Assembly (NCBI GenBank): GCA_031414955.1
Contig: JANOQV010000083.1
Location: 1 to 11,169, forward strand
Length of the DNA stretch: 11,169 nt
Direction of reading: 5' to 3'
Origin: Pedosphaera sp.
Lineage (GTDB): Bacteria; Verrucomicrobiota; Verrucomicrobiia; Limisphaerales; SIBH01
Positions 1 to 11,168 of the stretch are shown here, piece after piece; positions within the stretch are counted from its first letter, which is position 1; every line of letters begins with the position of its first letter. A program made the position numbers and the translations under genes. The notes beneath the pieces were generated by a model. It saw only the letters and a program-made list of their open reading frames with translations. It made no database searches and had not been told where the DNA came from.

Positions 1-771
1 CTGCTCGTGGGCGGCATCGACAAGCTGTTCGAGATCGGGAAGAACTTCCGCAACGAAGGACTCTCGCGCCGGCACAATCCCGAGTTCACGATGCTGGAAG
101 CCTACTGCGCGTTCGGCGATTACGAGTCGATGATGGAGACGGTGGAGGCGTTGATAACCACCGTCGCGCAGAAGGTGCTGGGCGGCCTCGTCATCGAGAC
201 GAAGGATGCGGAAGGCCAAGTGATCAAGTCCATTGACCTCTCGCCGAAATGGAAGCGCGCCCGCTACAAAGACCTCGTGAAAGAGAAGGCTGGCACGGAC
301 TGGTTCAACATCTCTCCTGCCGAACGCCGCCAACGTGCCCACGATCTCGGCGCGGAGATTGGAAAAGAATACGAGGACTTTGAAGTGACGGGCGCGGTCT
401 TCGAGAAGCTGATTGAGCCAACGCTCATCCAACCAACCTTCGTGACTCACCTTCCCAAAGAACTCGTCCCGCTCGCCAAGCTCTCGCCTGACGACCCGAC
501 GACCGTGGAAGTGTTTGAGTGCTGCATCAACGGACAGGAAATCGCGCCGGGCTACACCGAACAAAACGACCCCATCGCGCAACGCAACACCTTGGAACAC
601 CAAGCGGGCGGCGAACAGCAAAAGCTCGATGAGGATTTCCTTGTGGCCCTTGAGCACGGGATGCCGCCAGCGGGAGGAATCGGGATTGGGATTGATCGCC
701 TGTGCATGATGTTGCTGGGGCAGGAGAGCATCAGGGACGTGATTCTGTTTCCACAGTTGAAACCGAAGTGA
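1..771 (+). CDS. lysS: Lysine--tRNA ligase (class II), 3' portion; starts upstream of window
   Basis: Motif 2 region [47 protein letters not shown], motif 3 [17 protein letters not shown] and the IRDVILFP terminus; TGA at 769-771. Confidence 0.98.
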
Positions 772-1367
772 AACAGCTTTTGCGAATGAAGCTGATGACT
801 TACCAACCAACATCGGCTTCTCCCGATGAGTTTGTTGAGTATTGGAGCAAGGTTTACCCCGAACAGGAAGACGCTGACCTGTACAGACTGAACATCGGTC
901 ATCTCTCACAGAAAGCTCTCCAAGACCTCTTTCTCTGGAAATTTGGGCTACGGTTCGCAGTGACGACGAGAAAGGCAGTAGAAAAAGAAATCATTCCGCG
1001 TTTGGACGAGTTGAACACGTTGCCAAACAATCTCGGAGCGGACGTTTTTCTGCGGCGCTTTTCAAAGGGCGGCGCGGTATTTCGGATTTTCCTGTTGCAC
1101 TGCTGGCGTCACAAACGATTCCCAATCTATGATCAGCACGTCCATCGGGCGATGAGTGCGATCAAATTTGGCCAGTGTGAGGAGATAGGGGCATGGTCCG
1201 ACAAAGAAAAAGTCGCTTCGTATTTGGACGATTATCTTGCATTTCACAGAGCCTTCGCCGGTTCAAATGAGCGCCGGGTCGATATGGCTTTGTGGGCGTT
1301 CGGCAAGTTCATCAAGACTTCCAGACTTCCGATGCCGCTTTCGAGAAACTCATCGAGCCGACACTGA
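768..1367 (+). CDS. Hypothetical protein, possibly helix-hairpin-helix DNA glycosylase-like
   Basis: GTG at 768 overlaps the lysS stop (GTGA); later in-frame ATG starts are possible. Motifs [15 protein letters not shown]5[12 protein letters not shown] and [12 protein letters not shown] recall HhH/OGG-like proteins. Lower GC than lysS. The last codons run into lysS repeat L1. Confidence 0.6.
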
Positions 1368-1704
1368 TTCAGCCGACGTTCGTCACGCATCTGCCGAAGG
1401 AACTCGTGCCGCTGGCCAAGCTCTCGCCCGACGACCCGACCACGGTGGAAGTCTTCGAGTGCTGCATCAACGGGCAGGAGATCGCGCCCGGCTACACCGA
1501 GCAAAACGATCCCATCCAGCAGCGCAACACGCTGGAGCACCCGGCCGGCGGCGAGCAGCAGAAGCCAGATTTCCTCGTCGCTCTCGAACACGGCATGCCC
1601 CCGGCGGGCGGCATCGGCATCGGCATCGACCGCCTGTGCATGATGCTCCTCGCCAGGAAAGCATCCGCGACGTGATCCTCTTCCCGCAGTTGAAGCCCAA
1701 ATAG
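1340..1704 (+). pseudogene. lysS: lysS 3'-end copy L1 (matches lysS 400..771)
   Basis: Encodes [14 protein letters not shown]...[13 protein letters not shown], with a 6-nt deletion (QKLDEDF->QKPDF) and a 1-nt frameshift near MLL; no 5' part of the gene. Confidence 0.95.
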
Positions 1705-1709
1705 CGGCG

Positions 1710-1737
1710 TTGCAAATCCACGCCTCCGCCCTACACT
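1710..1737 (+). promoter_or_regulatory. Putative sigma70 promoter, leaderless start of antitoxin gene
   Basis: TTGCAA (1710-1715), 16 nt spacer, TACACT (1732-1737); GTG start at 1744 is 6 nt downstream; no Shine-Dalgarno. Confidence 0.6.
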
Positions 1738-1743
1738 GCCCGT

Positions 1744-1974
1744 GTGAATGCCATCGCCGTCGAATTGGACCGGAAACTTCAAGGTCTTGATCCCGACACT
1801 GCCGCCTCCGTGGAGCGACTGGTGCGGGACGCCTTGCATCTGGCCGAGCAGAAGCGCGCCGCCGCACCGAAGGAATCGCACCGTGAATTCATTCAACGCC
1901 TGCGCGGTTCATTTGGCGACGAGCCATTTGAGCGTCCGCCGCAGGGAGAGTTTGAAAAGCGCGAGGATTGGTGA
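1744..1974 (+). CDS. Putative antitoxin (VapB-type) of PIN toxin
   Basis: 76 aa, C-terminal LRGSFGDEPFERPPQGEFEKREDW typical of VapC partners; TGATG overlap with the toxin gene. Confidence 0.8.
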   Translation: MNAIAVELDRKLQGLDPDTAASVERLVRDALHLAEQKRAAAPKESHREFIQRLRGSFGDEPFERPPQGEFEKREDW

Positions 1975-2387
1975 TGGCGTGGCTTCTGGACACGAATGCG
2001 TGGATTAGCTTCTTGAAGCCGGGTCAGCCGGCTGGGAAGGCCATCGCCGACCGGCTGGCTGCACTTCAGGAAAGTGAAATCCTTCTTTGCTCCTTGGTGA
2101 AGGCCGAACTCTGGCATGGCGCGGAAAAATTCGGCAACCGCGAGTCGCGGCTGGCGAAACTCGCGGAGGTGTTCGCCCGCTACAATTCTCTGCCCTTTGA
2201 TGACGCTGCCGCGCGCCACTACGCGGCTGTCCGGCATGATTTGGAAACACGCGGACAAGTCATCGGGCCAAACGATTTGAAAATTGCCGCCATCTGCCTT
2301 GCGCATGGATTGACGCTGGTCAGCAACAATACGAGCGAGTTCAGCCGTGTTGCTGGATTGAAGGCGGAAGACTGGACGAAAGCGTAA
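1974..2387 (+). CDS. vapC: VapC PIN-domain ribonuclease toxin
   Basis: WLLDTNAWI, SLVKAELWHG, LPFDDAAA, IGPNDLKIAAICLAHGLTLVSNNTSEFSRV: canonical PIN motifs. Confidence 0.95.
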   Translation: MAWLLDTNAWISFLKPGQPAGKAIADRLAALQESEILLCSLVKAELWHGAEKFGNRESRLAKLAEVFARYNSLPFDDAAARHYAAVRHDLETRGQVIGPNDLKIAAICLAHGLTLVSNNTSEFSRVAGLKAEDWTKA

Positions 2388-2393
2388 TCAAAG

Positions 2394-2710
2394 CACGCCT
2401 CTGCCGAAGGAGCTCGTGCCGCTGGCCAAGCTCTCGCCCGACGACCCGACCACGGTGGAAGTCTTCGAGTGCTGCATCAACGGCCAGGAGATTGCGCCCG
2501 GCTACACCGAGCAGAACGATCCCATCGCGCCGCGCCACACGCTGGAGCACCAGGCCGGCGGCGAGCAGCAGAAGCCAGATTTCCTCGTGGCCCTCGAACA
2601 CGGCCTGCCCCCAGCGGGCGGCCTCGGCATCGGCATCGACCGCCTCTGCCTGATGCTCCCAGGAAAGCATCCGCGACGTGATTCCGTTTCCGCAGTTGAA
2701 GCCGAAGTGA
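2394..2710 (+). pseudogene. lysS: lysS 3'-end copy L2 (matches lysS ~444..771)
   Basis: [16 protein letters not shown]...PQLKPK*; same KPDF deletion as L1, larger deletion at MLLGQ. Confidence 0.95.
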
Positions 2711-2718
2711 CAGCACGC

Positions 2719-2747
2719 TTGAAACCCGCATCGCTCCTCGCGATAGT
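2719..2747 (+). promoter_or_regulatory. Putative sigma70 promoter, leaderless start
   Basis: TTGAAA (2719-2724), 17 nt spacer, GATAGT (2742-2747); ATG 2754 is 6 nt downstream. Confidence 0.55.
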
Positions 2748-2753
2748 GCGTCC

Positions 2754-2960
2754 ATGAGTGCAGCAGAAGCCACGGCGGAAGTTTTCGTCACCGCGTTCAA
2801 GTCCTTGAAGCCGCGCCAGCGCGAGGCCGTGCTGGAACGGATGCTGGAAGACGAGGGTATTTCCGCTGACATCGCTGACACGCTGGCTTTGGAAGCGCGC
2901 CGCCATCAGCCGCGCCAGCCCTTCCGGCAGGTGCTGAAAGAACTCGGCATCAAGGCGTGA
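2754..2960 (+). CDS. Putative antitoxin of RelE/ParE toxin
   Basis: 68 aa upstream of the toxin with GTGA overlap; C-terminal PFRQVLKELGI typical of RelE partners. Confidence 0.8.
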   Translation: MSAAEATAEVFVTAFKSLKPRQREAVLERMLEDEGISADIADTLALEARRHQPRQPFRQVLKELGIKA

Positions 2961-3214
2961 ACTGGCAGATTGAAATCGCCCGCGATGCCCGCAAGGAACT
3001 CGCCAGCCTTCATTCGCAGATGCAGATTCGGATTTCCAAGGCCATCCTCGCGCTTGAGAACAACCCCTTCCCGAACGGCTGCAAAAAGCTTAAGAACCGC
3101 GACGGCTACCGTATTCGCGTCGGTGACTATCGGGTGCTGTATTTCATGGACACGAAATTGAAACGGATTGTCATCGGCAGCATCGGTCATCGCCGAGAAG
3201 TTTATCGCGACTGA
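2957..3214 (+). CDS. relE: RelE/ParE family toxin
   Basis: ARKELASL, LENNPFPNGCKKLK, YRIRVGDYRVLY, IGHRREVYR. Confidence 0.95.
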   Translation: MNWQIEIARDARKELASLHSQMQIRISKAILALENNPFPNGCKKLKNRDGYRIRVGDYRVLYFMDTKLKRIVIGSIGHRREVYRD

Positions 3215-3215
3215 C

Positions 3216-3341
3216 CGCCTCTACGGCGAAGGCCAAGAGAAGCTGCTGCGGGTGGTGGTTGAAGAAACGGAAGCTGAAATTGTGGCGGTGACGGTTTATC
3301 CTGTTTCGCAGGTCAAACGATATTGGAAGGAAGCACCATGA
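3216..3341 (+). pseudogene. 5'-truncated DUF4258-like toxin remnant
   Basis: Reads RLYGEGQEKLLRVVVEETEAEIVAVTVYPVSQVKRYWKEAP*; its TGA overlaps the DUF2283 ATG (ATGA); the N-terminal half is missing. Confidence 0.75.
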
Positions 3342-3553
3342 AGCTCACATACGACAAAGAGACCGACACGCTGTTGATTGTGCTGAAGAGCAGCGCGATC
3401 ACGGGGACCGAAGAGGTGCGCCCCGGCGTGCTGGCGGACTTGGATGAGAGCGGCGCGTTGGTGAGCATGGAAGTCCTCAATGCCTCTCGCAAAGTGGAGA
3501 CCTTGAACGATTTGCTCGCGAGCCACTTGCCGGTTGAATTGGAAGTGGCGTGA
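3338..3553 (+). CDS. DUF2283 family protein (putative antitoxin)
   Basis: MKLTYDKETDTLLI...EEVRPGVLADLDESGALVSMEVLNAS signature. Confidence 0.88.
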   Translation: MKLTYDKETDTLLIVLKSSAITGTEEVRPGVLADLDESGALVSMEVLNASRKVETLNDLLASHLPVELEVA

Positions 3554-3563
3554 CCAGCCCGTA

Positions 3564-3789
3564 GCCGAAGGAACTCGTGCCGCTGGCCAAGCTCTCGCCC
3601 GACGACCCGGCCACGGTGGAAGTCTTCGAGTGCTGCATCAACGGGCAGGAGATTGCGCCCGGCTACACCGAGCAGAATGATCCCATCGCGCCGCGCCACA
3701 CGCTGGAGCACCAGGCCGGCGGCGAGCAGCAGAAGCCAGATTTCCTCGTCGCCCTCGAACACGGCCTGCCCCCAGCGGGCGGCCTCGGC
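3564..3789 (+). pseudogene. lysS: lysS 3'-region copy L3 (matches lysS ~453..686), truncated by fusion to thrS copy
   Basis: [14 protein letters not shown]...LPPAGGLG; shares APRHT, KPDF and LPPAGGL changes with L2. Confidence 0.93.
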
Positions 3790-4200
3790 TTCGCGCCGGT
3801 CGGGCCGCCGTGGTGGAGACGCACCCTCACCGCGCGGGCTTCCATGTCGCGACCGCCGATGACGTCGTAACGCAGATTGGCAATCTGCCGTATCGCCGAC
3901 TGGCAGTCGGCAGGGCGTCGCCAGACAGAACGCGCAAAAAATATCCCACGACCTCCGGCGCAGCACCGCCCCGCAGATTGGCAATCTGCGACACGGCAGA
4001 CTGCCAGTCTGCGCTACTGCGTTGGAAATCATCGCCCCCGCTCGCGATTTATAGGAGTTGAACGGCGTCGCGCTGAAATCCGCATCCACGCGCACCATGT
4101 TCGCGCGCAGTTCGGCCACGATGAACTGGGCGTAGTTGATCAACGCTTCGTCGTCGTTGAGCGTGATCACGCGCACCTGATCCGGCGCGAGCCAGAGCGG
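3785..4200 (-). pseudogene. thrS: thrS 3'-region copy T1 (matches thrS ~10426..10694), interrupted by REP doublet and 21-nt insertion
   Basis: PLWLAPDQVRVITLNDDEALINYA...DFSATPF, then ISNA and AVRVRLHHGGP.GAKP; insertion at 4037-4057. Confidence 0.92.
3867..4017. repeat. REP doublet (REPIN-like), GTAG type
   Basis: Left arm GTAACGCAGATTGGCAATCTGCCGTATCGCCGACTGGCAGTCGGC (3867-3911) and inverted right arm ending GCAGACTGCCAGTCTGCGCTAC (3972-4017); each arm has two hairpins. Confidence 0.85.
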
Positions 4201-4331
4201 CCATCTTGGCCCTGTTGAGAGTTGCTCAAAAGTTGGCTTCCTCACGAGTTGACTTGCCAACTTGACCTTGGAGACAAAAGAATGGATTATTGGCGAATGA
4301 ACTGCGAGAAATTAAAATCAGGAGCATTGTT

Positions 4332-5381
4332 ATGAATGTGATTCTTACACACAAGCTGCGCCGACTTGGGATAACTGTCTTGCTCGTGTGGGCAACTGTT
4401 TATCCGTTAACCAGTCGGGGTGAAATTTATACGACAGTGGATAATCGCGGTCACTGTCAGCACGACTACGCCGCATCAGCTAACCCATTTACATGGACTA
4501 CCGAGAGTATAGCGCCATACCACGGACCAAGAAGCGACGGCTGGAATGTCTATACTGTAGATTACAATCTTATAGGTAATGGTCTTTTTGGTGGCATTCA
4601 ACTTTGCTCGGAGTCTGTCACGATCATTTGGCGAAATAATCCAAGGCAAAACCACGAACGAGTTGACCGGATTAAAAGGAAAATAACCATACAAAACTTG
4701 TTCAACAAATACGACCCCAACAGCGACGAATACCAATACAGATACAGACCGAGACCGCAGCCTAAGGAAAATAAAAACTTGTTTAGAATAAAAACCCCTT
4801 CGGCGGTGGTGGGGACTCGATGTTCACTAGACAAGAAGTTCATCGGTATTGACCTGATTGAAGCTTCACCGGATGGGGCACTGCTTGATTTCACGCTCAC
4901 CCAATCGAATATCCTCGCAGGCGAGGTTATTCACATGATGATCGAAGCTAAAGGCGATGAAGATTGGATTGAGTTGGCAGCCAACGGAACGAACTTTATG
5001 TGTCTCCCACTCGCCGATTTTGACGTGGGCGAGTATTATGAAATTGACGTGCCGTCCGAGTTGCTGGTGGTGGGAAAAAACACTTACAGCTATTTCCTGA
5101 ACAGCACCGGCGCGGTAAACTCAACCATCTTCTTCCCGCTCGGCGTGCCGGCGGATGAGCCTCCAACCATTGGCGCATTTACCATCACGAACTCAAACTT
5201 TGCCCTGCAACTGACCAACTTGGTGTATGGCCTCGACTATGCCATCGAGCAGTCCGTCGCGCTCGCAACCACCAACTGGCAGTCGGTGGCAACCTTTACC
5301 GCAACCAATGATTTTCACTCCCTCAGCGTGCCGATGACAAATGCGGCAATGTTCTATCGCGCCGCAATTTCACCGCCGTAG
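4332..5381 (+). CDS. Putative secreted protein with C-terminal Verrucomicrobia-type beta domain
   Basis: AGGAG at 4320-4324 before ATG 4332; signal peptide (KLRRLGITVLLVWATVYP); C-terminal YAIEQSVALATTNWQSV...MFYRA motif; AT-rich N-terminal half. Confidence 0.75.
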   Translation: MNVILTHKLRRLGITVLLVWATVYPLTSRGEIYTTVDNRGHCQHDYAASANPFTWTTESIAPYHGPRSDGWNVYTVDYNLIGNGLFGGIQLCSESVTIIWRNNPRQNHERVDRIKRKITIQNLFNKYDPNSDEYQYRYRPRPQPKENKNLFRIKTPSAVVGTRCSLDKKFIGIDLIEASPDGALLDFTLTQSNILAGEVIHMMIEAKGDEDWIELAANGTNFMCLPLADFDVGEYYEIDVPSELLVVGKNTYSYFLNSTGAVNSTIFFPLGVPADEPPTIGAFTITNSNFALQLTNLVYGLDYAIEQSVALATTNWQSVATFTATNDFHSLSVPMTNAAMFYRAAISPP

Positions 5382-5404
5382 CTTCCGACATCGCCAAGTG
5401 TAGC

Positions 5405-5509
5405 TCACGCCCTTCTCTCCCAAATACTCGCCAAAATATCCGCCACGACCTCCGCCTTCGGCTTCGCGCCTTGCGGGCCGCCGTGGTGGAGACGCACGCT
5501 CACCGCGCC
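5405..5509 (-). pseudogene. thrS: thrS extreme 3'-end copy T2 (matches ~10374..10478, includes stop)
   Basis: GAVSVRLHHGGPQGAKPKAEVVADILA...RRA* alignable to the thrS end. Confidence 0.9.
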
Positions 5510-5511
5510 AT

Positions 5512-5820
5512 TCATACAAAGAAGCCTCCGAAGACCGGCGGTATTTCCCGAGCCACGCAACGCAGGCTGGTCTGGCGCTGGCGCAAGGCGGCATCCAGCC
5601 GTTCCGCCGGCTCTTCCGAGACGAGGACTTCCTCAATCAATTCGCGGTGCGCTTGAAAGCGTTCACGATACGGATGGCGCTGATCCATCCAATGGGCCAG
5701 AAGACGGGCGCGCATCTCCGGCAAACGCCACATGCGGCGTCCGTAAACAAAACGGGCCACGTCATCCCAATTCGGGTAGTCGCCCCAGACACTTCGGACG
5801 TTTTCTGTGTTTGTCTGCAT
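5512..5820 (-). CDS. Hypothetical protein (102 aa)
   Basis: MQTNTENVRSVWGDYPNWDDVARF...IPPVFGGFFV; protein-like composition, upstream promoter match; no family recognised. Confidence 0.7.
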   Translation of the reverse strand: MQTNTENVRSVWGDYPNWDDVARFVYGRRMWRLPEMRARLLAHWMDQRHPYRERFQAHRELIEEVLVSEEPAERLDAALRQRQTSLRCVAREIPPVFGGFFV

Positions 5821-5827
5821 GATCCCC

Positions 5828-5856
5828 ACTATGGCAGAGCGAGGCGCTCGGCCCAA
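5828..5856 (-). promoter_or_regulatory. Putative sigma70 promoter, leaderless start
   Basis: Minus strand TTGGGC, 17 nt spacer, CATAGT, then 7 nt to ATG at 5820. Confidence 0.45.
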
Positions 5857-5951
5857 GCGGCATGTGCGCGATCCCTTGGCTCGTTTCGCTTGCGCTTGGG
5901 CACCAGCAGATCCGCCACTGCGGGGACAACCACGAGCAGGTGGCCATACTG

Positions 5952-6503
5952 CTTGCGGACCGACGTGGTGCAGACGCACGCTCACCGCGTCGGCTTCCGT
6001 GTCACGACCGCCGATGACGACTGTAGCCGACGACGTGAGGAGGCGGGAAGCTTCCTGAACGTTCCGCGTTGGCACTCTCCGCCTTGAACGGCGTCGCGCT
6101 GTAATCGGCATCCACTCGCACCATGTTCGCGCGCAGTTCGGCCACGACGGGCTTGGCGTAGTTGATCAACGCCTCGTCGTCGTTGAGCGTGATGACGAGC
6201 ACCTGATCCGGCGCGAGCCAGAGCGGGAAGTTGCCCGCGTAATGCTCGATGAGGAAACCGATGAACCGCTCGTGCGTGCCGAGCGGCGCGCGATGGATGC
6301 ACAACGGCGTCTTGTTCGTGTTGTCTTTGTCGCGGTAGGTCAGGCCGAACTTGGCGGGAACGGCGAAGTCCACCTGGTTGGTGGCGATGGTGAATTCGCG
6401 GCCGATGGCGCTCCACACCTGCACGTCAATCTTCGGCCCGTAGAACGCCGCCTCGTTGGCCACCTCCACATAGTTGATGCCCGATTCGATCAACACCTGG
6501 CGC
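5952..6503 (-). pseudogene. thrS: thrS 3'-region copy T3 (matches ~10439..10971)
   Basis: RQVLIESGINYVEVANEAAFYGPKIDVQ...IHRAPLGTHERFIGFLIEHYAGNFPLWLAP...SNAE; 6019-6060 replaces thrS 10506-10528. Confidence 0.95.
6023..6046 (+). repeat. Single GTAG-type REP-like element
   Basis: GTAGCCGACGACGTGAGGAGGCGG, an imperfect palindrome headed by GTAG, inside non-thrS sequence. Confidence 0.6.
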
Positions 6504-6584
6504 GTCTGGTGACAACGTGGTTCAACTTGGGCAAAACTTTTCAAATTCAACTCGCGTAAAAAGTTTCTGCGAACTCCGCTCAAA

Positions 6585-7709
6585 TCAATCTGCACTCTCG
6601 GCCGCTTGGCGCAATGCAAGGAACGCTTCCTTCAACGCCTGACTGACCGCGCTGTCCGCTTCTTGAAGAACAAGAACTTGGTATTGGTCGAGAAAATCCT
6701 TCCGCAGACGATGAAACAGATGCAGGAAGTGCCGCAGGAATCCGATGCAATCCAGAATCGCGATTTCAACGCCACCCGTTTCGTCATACTTCGAGCGGGC
6801 ATATTCGCGGATGTCGTCTGCGACCGACTCGGTTGAAATGAAGATGTAGTTTTGAACGTGCTTTCCTTGGGCGGCAATTTTCTGGAGCGCACGGTCAATG
6901 TCGCTACGCTGCACCGCCTTGTTCTTCATCTCATAGCTCGTCACCACTTTGTCCTCGCCGAGCAGCGTGATTTGAACGTCGCCCACCGCTCCGGTCTGTT
7001 CATCGGCGGCGTTGTGAGCGGTGAGATTGAGCACACGCTCGCCGAGTCGCGTTTTTGCCGATTCGTAAGCGGCAGCAACAATCAAGACCAGCAGACGACT
7101 CGAACCTTTGCAGCGCAGATGCTGCTCAATCAGATTCACAGTGTCTTCGGATGAGAGCGGAAGCGCACCAACGACACGACCGACGCCCGAGAGCAAAGTC
7201 TTCAGTCGAACTTTCCGCGCATCACGTTCGAGCAGCAACAATCGAATGGACTCATCCAAGACATCCTTGGCCGAGACTCGACCAGCCCGCACATCGTCCA
7301 AAAGCTCCAAAGCATCGTGATACATCACCATCGGACGCCCCACCAAAACAACTTTGATTGTCAGCGTTTGGTCCATGTTCCGCAGCGTCGGCGTGAGAAA
7401 CGCGGTGGTGGAATTGCAGGGAAGATTGTGGCGCGTGATGAAGTCGCCGATGAATTGCTCGTCGTAACTGCGGCCAGAGAAACAATCCTTGCTACCAATT
7501 TTCGTGTAGGGCTTGCGTGGGTCAATTTCCGGGCGATGTGCTTTCGCCAACATACAAGCCAAGATTAGCCGCACGCCCGCGCGATTACTCGGACAGTTGA
7601 CGACCGAAACGACACGCGCGGCGATTTCCTCGTCGTGAATAAACGAATGGCCGAGATTCTTTTGAGCGCGCTTTAGCGCAGCCTCAAGCAGTGGCGAACA
7701 GTTCTCCAT
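6585..7709 (-). CDS. Type II restriction endonuclease, probably SacI-like
   Basis: Downstream of and overlapping the MTase; AADEQTGAVGDVQI...SYEMK PD-(D/E)xK motif; NRAGVRLILACMLAK and GRSYDE N-terminal motifs; likely start ATG 7709. Confidence 0.75.
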   Translation of the reverse strand: MENCSPLLEAALKRAQKNLGHSFIHDEEIAARVVSVVNCPSNRAGVRLILACMLAKAHRPEIDPRKPYTKIGSKDCFSGRSYDEQFIGDFITRHNLPCNSTTAFLTPTLRNMDQTLTIKVVLVGRPMVMYHDALELLDDVRAGRVSAKDVLDESIRLLLLERDARKVRLKTLLSGVGRVVGALPLSSEDTVNLIEQHLRCKGSSRLLVLIVAAAYESAKTRLGERVLNLTAHNAADEQTGAVGDVQITLLGEDKVVTSYEMKNKAVQRSDIDRALQKIAAQGKHVQNYIFISTESVADDIREYARSKYDETGGVEIAILDCIGFLRHFLHLFHRLRKDFLDQYQVLVLQEADSAVSQALKEAFLALRQAAESAD

Positions 7710-8709
7710 GGGATTTGCCGTTGCGTTTGATTTTTTGTGGGTTGTAATTTGTCCAGAGAATCTCCACGCGCTTGTCTTTCGTCGAATGGTTCGTGCGTTC
7801 TGGTGAAACCGTCTTGTGCCATTTCGGAGCAGGATAAAGCTGGTCAAGGATTCCAGCCTGATAATTCGAGAAAGCCACCATGCCTTGAACCGCGTTAAGA
7901 ACTTCCGCGAGTTCCTTGTGCTGCGCGTCGGTCATTTCAAATCCGTAAGCCTTCGAGTCGCCGCGCGTCGAGTGGACATAAGGCGGGTCGCAGTAAAATA
8001 GCGTGACCGGTGAATCGTAGAGGCGAATGATATTCGCAGCGGGACGGTTTTCGATTTGAACGCGGAGCAACCGTTCCGCCACCGCAGGCAAATCTTTTAC
8101 TGATCCAAGCCACCGGCTGATGACACCGCTCATGCCGGCGCGGCTTGTGTTCTTACAGTTGGCCCAACGACCGATGGTAGCAGTCTGCGCCAGTCCCGTT
8201 CGGACTTGCCGGGCGCGAACAAAAAAACGGCGGGCACGCTCCAAAGCTGTCAAATCGGGGCTGACTTCACAGGCAATCGCAAATTCTTCGCGCGCGAACG
8301 GAGTCAAACCGATGGCCTCAATCAGCCGTTGCTTTTCCTCGCGGAGAACGCGGAAGAAATTTACCACTTCGCCGTCGAGATCGTTGAACGTTTCCACTGG
8401 CGACGGCTCGCGATTGAGCAGCACCGCACCCGACCCGGCGAACGGCTCGCAATAATGATGACAATCGGGAAGCAACGGCAGCAGCCAGTCGAGATGCGAG
8501 AACTTTCCGCCATACCAGCCGAACGGAATAAGTTTTTTTCTTTCCGTGAGACGAGCGACAGGTGGCGGCACTGTCCGTCCGTGCCGCAAAACATCACCAT
8601 TGACGCGATACGGCGGCGCGTCTTCGCGCAAAACCATTGCCTCCGCCTTTTGCTTGGGGCGACTACGAGACGGGCGAACTTGCTTTCGCATTGTTGGAGT
8701 TTTTTTCAT
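7684..8709 (-). CDS. DNA adenine methyltransferase (Dam/D12 class)
   Basis: FGWYGGKFSHL, YCEPFAGSGAV (motif I), NDLDGEVVNFF, FYCDPPY (motif IV), EILWTNY; start uncertain. Confidence 0.95.
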   Translation of the reverse strand: MKKTPTMRKQVRPSRSRPKQKAEAMVLREDAPPYRVNGDVLRHGRTVPPPVARLTERKKLIPFGWYGGKFSHLDWLLPLLPDCHHYCEPFAGSGAVLLNREPSPVETFNDLDGEVVNFFRVLREEKQRLIEAIGLTPFAREEFAIACEVSPDLTALERARRFFVRARQVRTGLAQTATIGRWANCKNTSRAGMSGVISRWLGSVKDLPAVAERLLRVQIENRPAANIIRLYDSPVTLFYCDPPYVHSTRGDSKAYGFEMTDAQHKELAEVLNAVQGMVAFSNYQAGILDQLYPAPKWHKTVSPERTNHSTKDKRVEILWTNYNPQKIKRNGKSHGELFATA

Positions 8710-8710
8710 G

Positions 8711-9460
8711 TCACACTTCATCGGGCAAATCTTGGTCGGTTTTGCACTGGGGCGTGCGTTCGTGCCAAACTTTTTGCAGCAACTTTTCTTGCACATCCAT
8801 GACAAGTTCGAGTTCAAGGCCGATGTCCTGGTAATTTTGCACCAGAACCACACCGCCACGACTGGTTAGCATAACCGGATGCCGCACTCCGTTGTGCATC
8901 CACGGGATCGTAACGTTTGAAAGATCGGCAACCTGCTGCAAGTTCTTGAACAAGCTATCATCTTGAATTTGATTTCCCGACAGTCCCACCGATTGCACTC
9001 GGCTTGACGCGCCACGAAACCACGCTCCGAGATATTCGCTGTTTAATTTTAAGACCGCGCCGAAGTCGAGTTCGACCTCAATCAATTCGATGCCACAAAG
9101 TTTAGCTTTGAGAAGACCGAGAACGCCACTGCACACTTTTTTCGGCGCTTGAAAAATCATGAGATTGCGGCCTTTGTGAAAATATGCGGGGAAATCTACT
9201 GGTTGCAGGTATTCGATGAATTGAATTTTTTCACGCTTTGAGCCGACAAGCGTTTTGATAAAGCCGACTGTTTGATGGCGGATTTCACTCTTAATTCGTA
9301 AGAGGTCGAGATCACCCTCGTAATTTTCAGCCTCGACGGTGATTACTGTATCCACGTCTTCGTTTTCACCTGAAAACGTCATTTGCACTTGATTCCTCAG
9401 AGACTTCCCCACGGCAGGCTTCTGGAAATCCTTCACCAGATAGAATTGGAAAGGTTTCAT
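8711..9460 (-). CDS. Hypothetical protein (249 aa)
   Basis: Clean ORF, ATGA overlap with the upstream gene, abuts the MTase; low GC. Confidence 0.85.
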   Translation of the reverse strand: MKPFQFYLVKDFQKPAVGKSLRNQVQMTFSGENEDVDTVITVEAENYEGDLDLLRIKSEIRHQTVGFIKTLVGSKREKIQFIEYLQPVDFPAYFHKGRNLMIFQAPKKVCSGVLGLLKAKLCGIELIEVELDFGAVLKLNSEYLGAWFRGASSRVQSVGLSGNQIQDDSLFKNLQQVADLSNVTIPWMHNGVRHPVMLTSRGGVVLVQNYQDIGLELELVMDVQEKLLQKVWHERTPQCKTDQDLPDEV

Positions 9461-10248
9461 GTATTCCTTTCAACAGGCAGAGCTTTTAAGCTCACGACAG
9501 TCCTCAAAGCTTCAAAAAGGTCAGGCAGGTTTTGGCTTTCAATGTTGACGTGATTTTTCCCCGCCTCGACGCGGCACGACGAGTTGGCGTCCAGACGAAA
9601 AGTGACTTGAAAATTTTGAAGCATTTCAGGTTGCACCCGATTCACAAACAGCCCGTAGTAAGGATTTTTGTCCCGCTCGTCAAAGCTCACCACAAGCCCG
9701 CACTGCACCGCGTTTGGTTTGGCCAACCGTGCAACATTGTCGGCAAGACTCGCCAACCGTTTTCGGAAATGGTCGTAGAGATGCGAAGGCACAATCAGTT
9801 TTTGCTCGAAATCCATGTATAGACGCTGCTCGTCCAGGCGAAACCGAATGACGAAAAGCTCGTCGAGCGCAACGCTCAGAGTCGTCGGCGTCATTTCCCG
9901 GCGTTGAGGCACACCATGCTTGCCATCGGCAAGCATCTGCCAGATTTCGTCAAGAAGAGTTGCACGAACTGACCCAGAATCGAGTGTCATAGCGACGTGC
10001 GGTTGCCAATATGTGTGAGTGCGAGCGAGCCGCAGCCGTATTCGATTCACAAACAGATGAAACGCAAGATTCCGGTGATAGAGGAAATTCAAAGCAGTTG
10101 TGTAAACGGCAAAGGCGACGGAAAAAACCGACACAACACCGGGGTAGCGACTCTGCGAATGGAGGATCACATCATTAAGTGAAACGCCACCCCACAAAAG
10201 GAAGGCGATCACTGCGACGTGGGCGATGATGATCCAAAAGATTTTCAT
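9457..10248 (-). CDS. Hypothetical membrane protein with two N-terminal TM helices (263 aa)
   Basis: IFWIIIAHVAVIAFLLWGGV and VVSVFSVAFAVYTTALNFLY hydrophobic segments followed by a soluble domain. Confidence 0.85.
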   Translation of the reverse strand: MKIFWIIIAHVAVIAFLLWGGVSLNDVILHSQSRYPGVVSVFSVAFAVYTTALNFLYHRNLAFHLFVNRIRLRLARTHTYWQPHVAMTLDSGSVRATLLDEIWQMLADGKHGVPQRREMTPTTLSVALDELFVIRFRLDEQRLYMDFEQKLIVPSHLYDHFRKRLASLADNVARLAKPNAVQCGLVVSFDERDKNPYYGLFVNRVQPEMLQNFQVTFRLDANSSCRVEAGKNHVNIESQNLPDLFEALRTVVSLKALPVERNT

Positions 10249-10308
10249 CTGTGCATTCCGCTACGTTTCATAAACCATAAATTTGAGGCGTGAGCAATGA
10301 TTTCCATT

Positions 10309-10365
10309 TCACGCTTTGGCGTAAAGCTCGTTTCCCTTCTCGGCAAACTCTTTGGATTTTTCTTG
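10309..10365 (-). pseudogene. thiC: Probable thiC extreme 3'-end remnant
   Basis: Reads QEKSKEFAEKGNELYAKA*, resembling the ThiC C-terminus (EKS.EF...G.E.Y); only 18 codons, recognised from memory. Confidence 0.55.
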
Positions 10366-10373
10366 GAAAAATT

Positions 10374-11168
10374 TCACGCCCGCCGCTCTTTGATGCCCGC
10401 CAGAATATCCGCCACGACCTCCCCCTTCGGCTTCGCGCCTTGCGGGCCGCCGTGATGGAGTCGCACGCTCACCGCGCCGGCTTCCATGTCGCGCCCGCCG
10501 ATGACCAGCATCGTGTGGACGCGCAATTGTTCCGCGTTGGAAATCTTCGCCTTGAACGGCGTGGCGCTGAAATCCGAGTCCACGCGCACCATGTTCGCGC
10601 GCAGTTCGGCCACGATGGGCTTGGCGTAGTTGATCAACGCTTCGTCGTCGTTGAGCGTGATGACGCGCACCTGATCCGGCGCGAGCCAGAGCGGGAAGTT
10701 GCCCGCGTAATGCTCGATGAGAAAGCCGATGAACCGCTCGTGCGTGCCGAGCGGCGCGCGATGGATGCACAACGGCGTCTTGTTCGAGTTGTCCTTGTCG
10801 CGGTAGGTCAGGCCGAACTTGGCGGGCACGGCGAAGTCCACCTGGTTCGTGGCGATGGTGAACTCGCGCCCGATGGCGCTCCACACCTGGACGTCAATCT
10901 TCGGCCCGTAAAACGCCGCCTCGTTGGCGACCTCCACGTAGTTGATGCCCGATTCGATCAACACCTTGCGCACCATGTCCTCGGTTTTCTTCCACAACTC
11001 CGGTTCGTTGACGTATTTCTTGCCAAGTCCTTCCGCCGCGTGCGTGCTGAAGCGCATCTGATATTTTTCCAGGCCGAAGATTTTGAAATACTTCAGATAC
11101 ATGTCGTTCACGGCGCGGAACTCGTCGGCGAACTGCTCCTCGGTGCAATAGATGTGGGCGTCGTTCAT
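10374..11168 (-). CDS. thrS: Threonine--tRNA ligase, 3' portion; starts beyond window
   Basis: MNDAHIYC, EAAFYGPKID, IHRAPLGTHERFIGFLIEHYAGNFPLWLAP, anticodon-binding domain. Confidence 0.98.
   Translation of the reverse strand: MNDAHIYCTEEQFADEFRAVNDMYLKYFKIFGLEKYQMRFSTHAAEGLGKKYVNEPELWKKTEDMVRKVLIESGINYVEVANEAAFYGPKIDVQVWSAIGREFTIATNQVDFAVPAKFGLTYRDKDNSNKTPLCIHRAPLGTHERFIGFLIEHYAGNFPLWLAPDQVRVITLNDDEALINYAKPIVAELRANMVRVDSDFSATPFKAKISNAEQLRVHTMLVIGGRDMEAGAVSVRLHHGGPQGAKPKGEVVADILAGIKERRA

Follow-up and report, generated by a model that had tools for sequence, protein, structure and literature searches.

Insertion with long target duplication (ILTD) of restriction-modification gene units was reportedly described by Nobusato et al. 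in 2000, and the C-terminal displacement and orphan arrays of the Rhs, contact-dependent inhibition (CDI) and type VI secretion (T6SS) systems are said, by way of Kirchberger et al. in 2017, to go back to Jackson in 2009. Integrative elements such as e14 and phage 21, both in icd, insert in the 3'-end of a protein gene, and the 3'-end of lysS reportedly serves as an integration site for streptococcal integrative and conjugative elements (ICEs) and for an enterococcal vanD island (PMC4701971, PMC8301612). According to the passages on ILTD in Furuta, Abe & Kobayashi (2010, PMC2853133), restriction-modification units lie between long and variable direct repeats, carry no mobility genes, occur mostly in naturally competent species and enter by an unknown mechanism. 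For arrays formed by sequential displacement, homology-facilitated illegitimate recombination (HFIR) has been proposed in the part of PMC5361080 that deals with them. Here an 11,169-bp stretch of a Pedosphaera sp. (Verrucomicrobiota) genome of Limisphaerales type, referred to as the window, is described, in which the lysyl- and threonyl-tRNA synthetase genes lysS and thrS are each followed by copies of their own 3'-ends, called tails below, with unrelated genes in between. The window is probably a double hotspot behind two convergent essential genes, in which small cassettes were inserted serially.

The window is the entire contig C83 of a 6.55-Mb metagenome-assembled genome (MAG) of 313 contigs, with 62% GC and a completeness of 95.9%, designated G000; relatives are designated G001 and so on. 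The contig boundaries fall inside lysS (+ strand, stop codon at 771) and inside thrS (- strand, stop codon at 10374). The thrS gene carries on in contig C210 via a 133-nt overlap, and the 5'-half of lysS was absent from a search of the rest of the G000 bin. A Pfam scan of the 14 open reading frames (ORFs) identified lysS, PIN (VapC), ParE/RelE, DUF2283, a SacI-like enzyme, a D12 methylase and thrS, and no recombinase.

Self-BLAST and a repeat search recovered six tail copies, three of lysS and three of thrS as first listed, with E-values from 1e-25 to 0. Each has the orientation of its parent, covers only the 3'-portion and is truncated at the 5'-side (Table 1), in agreement with the initial annotation. 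The layout given there needed revision: all of the sequences are real, but copy C of thrS consists of two blocks split by an insert, and copies A and B are parts of one split copy. In terms of thrS positions the latter two overlap over 40 nt, the insertion nested between them is bounded by a repeat of 38 nt (5470-5507 and 5952-5989, 92% identity), and the two pieces are, as deduced from this arrangement, a single copy. Two relatives share the 5'-boundary of copy A, at residue ~66 in the 264-residue window fragment, along with some 55-80 nt of the flank upstream. Identities between the lysS copies are 92-97%, and the resident lysS tail, an allele with a GC content of ~58%, is poorer in GC than the copies and unlike them. 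Copy 3 is cut at about 3789, where it adjoins the innermost thrS copy. Decay is evident from frameshifts in lysS copies 1 and 2 and from the indels in thrS copy A. The 194-bp insert in copy C (3864-4057) replaces 46 bp of thrS and contains two pairs of short hairpins with palindromes of ~15-19 nt; related palindromes lie on a few other G000 contigs, with 7 matches on 4 contigs for hairpin A and 21 on 16 for hairpin B (both strands, one mismatch allowed), and the insert is probably a small element resembling repetitive extragenic palindromes (REP) or miniature inverted-repeat transposable elements (MITE).

Table 1 Resident genes, tail copies and cargo in the window (contig C83), and further G000 genes followed by copies of their own tails
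Feature	Contig	Position	Strand	Description
Resident lysS 3'-half	C83	1..771	+	Pfam tRNA-synt_2, 1.6e-56; contig begins within the gene
Cargo 1	C83	786..1367	+	193-aa ORF, no family, GC 48-52%; final codons extend into lysS tail copy 1
lysS tail copy 1	C83	1340..1704	+	Versus lysS 400-771: aligned 1340-1700, 79%, E 1e-88; reaches stop codon; frameshifted
Cargo 2	C83	1744..2387	+	VapB-like gene 1744-1974; VapC PIN toxin 1968-2387 (PIN 1.8e-20)
lysS tail copy 2	C83	2394..2710	+	Versus lysS 400-771: aligned 2401-2710, 80%; reaches stop codon; 5-nt deletion
Cargo 3, relBE cassette	C83	2711..3214	+	43-nt leader; relB 2754-2960; relE/ParE 2957-3214 (ParE_toxin 2.3e-9)
Cargo 4	C83	3323..3553	+	DUF2283 gene (Pfam); in one relative in a cassette of its own
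lysS tail copy 3	C83	3564..3793	+	Versus lysS 400-771: aligned 3565-3788, 80%; truncated at both ends
thrS tail copy C	C83	3785..4200	-	Blocks 3785-3863 (versus 10427-10505, 90%) and 4058-4200 (versus 10552-10694, 95%)
363-aa protein	C83	4290..5381	+	No family; hydrophobic N-terminus; GC 42-49%; orientation opposite to thrS
thrS tail copy B	C83	5405..5509	-	Versus thrS 10374-10478: 88%; final 105 nt including stop codon
Nested cargo	C83	5512..5802	-	Small ORF of ~96 aa, no family; between thrS copies B and A
thrS tail copy A	C83	5952..6503	-	Versus thrS 10439-10971: 552 bp, 89%, E 0, 7 indels
Four-gene operon	C83	6585..10248	-	SacI-like restriction enzyme 6585-7847; D12 N6-adenine methylase 7684-8859; unknowns 8711-9460 and 9457-10248
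Resident thrS 3'-half	C83	10374..11169	-	Pfam tRNA-synt_2b and HGTP_anticodon
pyc	C140			Tail copy 529 bp, 95%
Aldehyde dehydrogenase	C244			Tail copy 116 bp, 96.5%
BATS/thiH-like gene	C257			Tail copy 135 bp, 93%
ispH	C280			Tail copy 84 bp, 94%
rmuC	C67			Tail copy 78 bp, 95%
M16 peptidase	C165			Two tail copies: 128 bp, 94%; 92 bp, 84%
PEP-utilising enzyme	C9			Three tail pieces
DUF1501 gene	C137			Tail copy 490 bp, 94%
DUF1501 gene	C159			Two tail copies: 201 bp, 86%; 73 bp, 82%
Amidohydrolase	C215			Tail copy 175 bp, 87%

The assembly was checked against Logan contigs of two runs, which contain ~90% of the sampled window words; both runs come from one study, probably the source study, and hence are not independent. 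Each unique cargo segment was represented by one Logan contig of even depth (~11x in one run, ~8x in the other) reaching 11-60 nt, mostly 29-60, into the tail copy at either end, with few if any differences. These contigs end about 30 nt inside each repeat; they support each cargo-tail adjacency and do not phase the order of the units. Runs X3 and X5 cover the window only in part, and the uncovered parts are uninformative. A single contig of run X2 joins 5962 to 10439, omitting the restriction-modification cassette and copy A, which is a weak hint of presence/absence polymorphism. At least 12 other genomes show the same architecture, among them ones in which it lies on contigs of 1.5 Mb and 290 kb; it is thus independent of this assembly.

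Variable cargo between conserved repeats, for which the initial annotation had proposed to compare relatives, was found at both lysS and thrS, so the window is not a one-off. Of 41 genomes from the genus and order, 12 have tail copies behind lysS, namely 9/12 in the genus, 0/2 in the sister genus and 3/27 in other families. The starts of these copies are spread over residues ~122-240 of the 256-residue window fragment, and the cargo varies among genomes (Nuc_deoxyrib_tr-like, ankyrin, RES-Xre, M50-TPR, relBE and unknowns). G013, like most genomes from other families, has a single lysS tail, that is an empty site. Copies of the thrS tail are likewise common in relatives, with arrays in G002, G016, G017, G018 and others; the cargo in these four comprises DUF433-DUF5615, ThuA, AAA_14-DUF4143, a TOTE primase-helicase, AAA_15/21-DUF3226 and an Eco57I-like gene. 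The array of G017 (L055, 4621-7479) encodes a TOTE-type primase-helicase-DUF559 protein of 953 aa, with a PaaX-like gene next to it, and recently described defence systems thus ride in such arrays. In none of the 12 lysS loci examined was thrS close to lysS. Both synthetase genes are mosaic: the 3'-half of thrS shares 97-99% identity with genomes of other families and 81-83% with two congeners, and the similarity of the lysS 3'-half to relatives is also discordant with kinship. This pattern suggests frequent recombination in the two genes, and the sliding identity of lysS versus three relatives gave no clean breakpoint at the copy boundary.

The layout is not confined to synthetase genes. Genome-wide, 139 local direct-repeat pairs were collected in G000 and the loci then checked with Pfam. 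Genes followed by their own 3'-ends, as had been foreseen from the window, were at least 10 in number besides lysS and thrS (Table 1), and their cargo consists mostly of toxin-antitoxin (PIN, PIN_3, ParE, RelE, HepT-MNT, DUF433), restriction-modification or nuclease genes. Two genes, gltX (C89) and glmS (C292), were not counted, the repeat lying just outside the gene or overlapping it by only 40 nt, and the repeats at priA/ubiA (C223), alaS (C94) and on C90 are tandem or flank IS200-like genes and represent a different phenomenon. Fifteen pairs classed by script as duplications of gene 5'-ends ('heads') were also set aside, and no symmetry between heads and tails is claimed; two were artefacts of a spurious window ORF, and among 11 others, on passing inspection, those on C94, C184 and C262 were repeats flanking RAYT genes and that on C12 was the head of a paralogue. 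A further 'head' pair, on C3, is really a small-ORF tail: this contig (L043, 1798-3534) has three copies of a 113-180-bp segment encoding the tail (...HEYELGENDARRAHFK.DLA.LREWLNG*), which separate MazF-like and YafQ-like toxin-antitoxin cassettes, and no full-length parent was found nearby. The RAYT-like genes on C94 (L061, 2922-3893), C184 (L041) and C262 (L044) encode 270-296 aa with an IS200-like Y1 transposase domain and are flanked by 110-130-bp direct repeats; one of them lies directly behind alaS, and their repeat system is distinct from the gene-tail copies.

The claim that the window lacks a recombinase held throughout. No integrase or resolvase family was detected among the 436 ORFs of the window and of all related or analogous loci fetched (~80 sequence stretches), and a DDE or Y1 transposase was nearby in a few of the loci scanned. 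In the whole of G000, eight matches to PF00589 were obtained, none adjoining an array or lying on any array contig, and there was no match to PF00239 at the completeness given above.

One cassette could be followed across genomes. The relBE unit begins at the stop codon of the preceding gene and comprises ~44 nt with a promoter-like TTGAAA-17-GATAGT followed by relB and relE; homology between loci starts at about -45 and stops at the relE stop codon, so that both ends are defined. A lysS tail precedes the unit in five genomes: it follows copy 2 in G000, the resident gene in G015 and G030 (both of other families) and a copy in G001, and in G013 it is degraded. One further GTDB genome, L104, also has it behind lysS. 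From the species collection the eight closest relBE loci were taken, with RelE identities of 71-88%; three stand behind lysS and five elsewhere, two of them behind feoA (L108, L109) and the remainder behind other genes. Direct repeats of 85-134 bp flank three of these five, the repeat being the feoA tail in L108 and L109 and part of an unidentified gene in L106; the other two have no repeat. The closest contigs L103, L104 and L106 carry record titles of unrelated genera (Akkermansia, Bifidobacterium) and are probably mislabelled bins. Judged from these loci, the cassette has changed anchor genes, in most cases with a new target duplication. Exchange from tail to tail does not suffice to explain the position of relBE behind other genes, with repeats at the upstream gene end in three of the five non-lysS loci; de novo insertion with long target duplication is required as well. 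The initial annotation had regarded the tails as recombination anchors for serial capture; the serial array on gene tails is real, but the tails are putative recombination sites, and relBE requires de novo insertion.

The junctions of the relBE cassette differ between genomes. In G015 and G030 the tail copy after the relE stop codon begins at ...CCGYCTGTGCATG, and in G001 it begins ~83 codons further upstream. At either type of junction the end of relE and lysS share an ATYGA microhomology. In G000 a tail copy of the G015/G030 type is reduced to 8 nt directly behind the relE stop codon (3215-3222), followed by the DUF2283 cassette. The order of cassettes is DUF2283, tail, relBE, tail in G001 and tail, relBE, DUF2283, tail in G000.

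Fourteen parent/copy pairs were analysed at their boundaries. The 5'-boundaries are sharp and fall at arbitrary codons. At the 3'-side the homology ends within 2 nt of the parent stop codon in seven pairs, at +20 nt in two and inside the coding sequence in five, four of which are explained by secondary events in the window. No 8-mer occurs in more than three of the 16 cassette-end flanks, and none of these flanks folds into an unusual hairpin (z from -1.9 to 1.3), which leaves no attC-like or REP-like cassette end. An origin of the cassettes from RAYT/REP elements was rejected on the same ground, the lack of a terminal motif.

Differences between resident and displaced tails are concentrated at third codon positions, which account for 263 of 357 (74%) in 16 pairs. 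The share is 86% for lysS, the three pairs of which have one resident tail in common, and 56% for thrS; in pyc it is 21 of 26, with none at second positions. Compared with ~45%, a rough expectation of our own for a duplicate decaying neutrally beside a resident that changes only silently, the binomial test gave p=4e-28, and p=7e-8 without lysS. Compared with the resident tails of most genus members, the displaced lysS copies show 89-92% identity and the resident tail of G000 shows 82-86%; G003 and G007 likewise combine a divergent resident tail with a displaced copy of the common type. The third-position bias and the genus-like displaced copies indicate that the tails are alleles diverged under selection in different lineages and not duplicates decayed in situ. 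The diverged tails either would have arrived with the cargo, or the resident tail would later have been replaced by ordinary recombination.

Taken together, these data make one reading rather likely, namely that cassettes were inserted serially behind conserved genes without a recombinase, that the old tail was displaced each time and that homologous recombination later spread and shuffled the arrays. Each cassette would be tightly trimmed and have its own promoter, with toxin-antitoxin, restriction-modification or unknown genes as cargo and no recombinase on board. Incoming DNA, probably from relatives, may pair by homology inside the conserved gene, and microhomology may serve to join its far end to a site further upstream in that gene, possibly on a sister chromosome. 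A join at an upstream point would displace the old tail rather than delete it, so that each event would keep the gene whole and strand a 5'-truncated tail copy on the far side of the insert, the survivors being only those outcomes that leave the essential gene intact. Repeated tails and the conserved gene would then let ordinary homologous recombination spread, lose and shuffle cassettes among relatives. Merodiploids can reportedly arise through transformation (PMC3784515).

Among described systems ILTD comes closest. In both cases the insert stands between direct repeats of more than 30 bp and of variable length, 30 to ~420 bp in the portion of PMC2853133 that gives them and 78-552 bp in the present loci; other genomes possess one copy of the repeated stretch, the insert lacks a transposase or integrase, and some repeats overlap the 3'-end of a gene. 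The restriction-modification operon flanked by thrS tails (552-bp repeats) is, by its arrangement, a plain ILTD member. In contrast to ILTD, the cargo here is mostly toxin-antitoxin or unknown genes, three to four units are inserted serially per gene, and the same genes are reused across a Verrucomicrobiota order. The repeat copies here are 79-97% identical and are diverged alleles instead of near-identical sequences, which could also be caused by later recombination. The resemblance to Rhs/CDI, noted from the beginning, extends to the layout and not beyond it. In the Rhs, CDI and T6SS systems, too, a full-length gene is followed by a string of co-oriented displaced 3'-pieces, the newest unit adjoins the gene, and the route proposed is a homologous anchor combined with an illegitimate join, HFIR (Kirchberger et al. 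2017, PMC5361080, in the part on these arrays). Here the tails are conserved housekeeping sequence and not variable toxin tips, and the payload is unrelated downstream cargo and not cognate immunity genes. HFIR would combine one homologous junction with one at a microhomology of 3-10 nt; here the ATYGA microhomology is present at the two relE/lysS junctions and 0-3 nt at the others.

Several points weigh against serial insertion by such a route. Its mechanism is inferred throughout and none of its steps was observed. Seven of the nine copies that reach the stop codon end within 2 nt of it, a precision that random joins do not predict, and microhomology is clear at two junctions only. With 93-97% identity, the tails of several pairs ought to have let homologous pairing pass through them. 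Later replacement of the resident tail could also give the third-position bias, and joint arrival of tail and cargo is not proven. G000 encodes ComEC and DprA, but as most bacteria have both, this is no demonstration of competence. The order of cassettes in the window rests on one short-read MAG assembly. Last, the survival of non-functional tail copies beside tightly trimmed cargo is not accounted for by the proposed route.

A wider formulation is put forward tentatively, with less confidence than serial insertion as such. The arrays may be a recombinase-independent counterpart of integrons, in which self-promoted cassettes with defined ends would enter behind any conserved gene by long target duplication, and the stranded tails would act as portable homology with which RecA and DNA uptake add, delete, reorder and export cassettes. 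The 3'-ends of essential genes would in this way become lineage-wide, self-renewing defence hotspots.

A doubtful alternative, though the best of those that dispense with this type of insertion, is that the arrays are decayed integrative elements or prophages, whose tyrosine integrases targeted gene 3'-ends and brought surrogate tails, and which accreted in tandem and lost all but the addictive toxin-antitoxin and restriction-modification genes. A whole gene, cargo and a displaced tail are their expected remains. Elements integrated at gene 3'-ends, such as the ICEs in lysS, a known integration site, keep the gene whole with a surrogate tail, leave the old tail downstream as a pseudogene and can accrete in tandem. 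Toxin-antitoxin and restriction-modification genes resist deletion, and tails with a third-position bias are compatible with surrogate tails borne by an element. Against this stand the absence of integrases and resolvases from all loci scanned, the small size of the units (0.5-4 kb, and down to 0.5-1 kb), copy boundaries that vary widely within one gene with no core motif in common (four boundaries in thrS), and the occurrence of one relBE cassette at no fewer than three different anchor genes.

Less probable again is local tandem duplication, from inside the gene to past its stop codon, by unequal or illegitimate exchange, with the inner copy later overwritten from diverged relatives. Such events are frequent, a pathway of this kind is drawn for partial rRNA duplications in the corresponding part of Lim et al. 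2012 (PMC3457768), and the mosaic lysS and thrS genes, with their similarity discordant with kinship, fit the overwriting. The cargo of the units argues the other way. It is different in every unit, no duplicated cargo was found in any unit by self-BLAST of the window, several cargoes have a foreign GC content of 42-52% versus 62% for the genome, and the same cassette is flanked by tails of different genes.

An integron-like system acting in trans, in which a recombinase encoded elsewhere would recognise the tails or the cassette ends and move circles, was judged slightly more improbable than tandem duplication. Chromosomal integrons also hold tight, co-oriented and often toxin-antitoxin-bearing cassettes next to a fixed platform, and here the cassettes run tightly from promoter to stop codon, the tail copies occupy the positions expected of attC sites and cassette order is shuffled between genomes. 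However, IntI and any attC structure are missing, the separators are copies of the neighbouring gene's tail, the cassette ends have neither motif nor hairpin in common, and the boundaries are arbitrary and lie in many unrelated genes. The likeness to integrons drawn in the initial annotation thus fails on their defining parts. No 'go-back' joint was present in the Logan contigs examined, though contigs cannot show rare circles. Finally, an assembly artefact, with strain variants chained chimerically via shared lysS and thrS sequence, is scarcely credible: the window is a whole contig of a fragmented MAG that ends inside both genes, and Logan contigs are broken by the repeats, but every cargo-tail junction lies on even-depth contigs in two runs and the architecture recurs in the other genomes listed above.

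Cargo 1 had no match in the lysS loci of relatives or elsewhere in G000, and the NCBIfam VapC models match cargo 2 below their cut-offs. Cargo on the thrS side was not found in the thrS loci of 13 relatives, and more distant homologues of VapC and of the small ORF 5512-5802 (up to 65% identity) in relatives had no lysS or thrS tail within 1.5 kb. Contig C285 (L047, 1-3306, 3.3 kb) encodes a version of this small ORF with 74% amino acid identity; a thrS tail piece with the same boundary (10504/10505) adjoins it there, followed by a DUF1501 gene, and the contig may hold the version of the nested cassette from another strain or another locus. The two operon ORFs in 8711-10248 (249 and 263 aa) had no match in Pfam, NCBIfam or PADLOC. 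The 263-aa product has a membrane-like N-terminal stretch, and both ORFs may be extra parts of the restriction system.

No description of serial tail arrays at aminoacyl-tRNA synthetase genes or in Verrucomicrobiota was found in the literature searched, subscription journals and supplements aside. New relative to ILTD are the serial arrangement, cargo of the toxin-antitoxin type, repeated use of the same genes throughout the lineage, the presence of one cassette at several anchors and the allele-like tails. Many defence and toxin-antitoxin hotspots are devoid of mobility genes, which raises the question of how their contents got there; ILTD itself has been without a mechanism since 2000, and this lineage, an unusually rich source, provides dozens of events at the same genes. 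Serial arrays, a cassette at several anchors, microhomology junctions and allele-like tails suffice to put homology-anchored models to the test, both with comparative genomics and in transformation experiments. For annotators, truncated synthetase 'pseudogenes' mark insertion scars, and the 3'-halves of aminoacyl-tRNA synthetase genes are exchanged along with the cargo.

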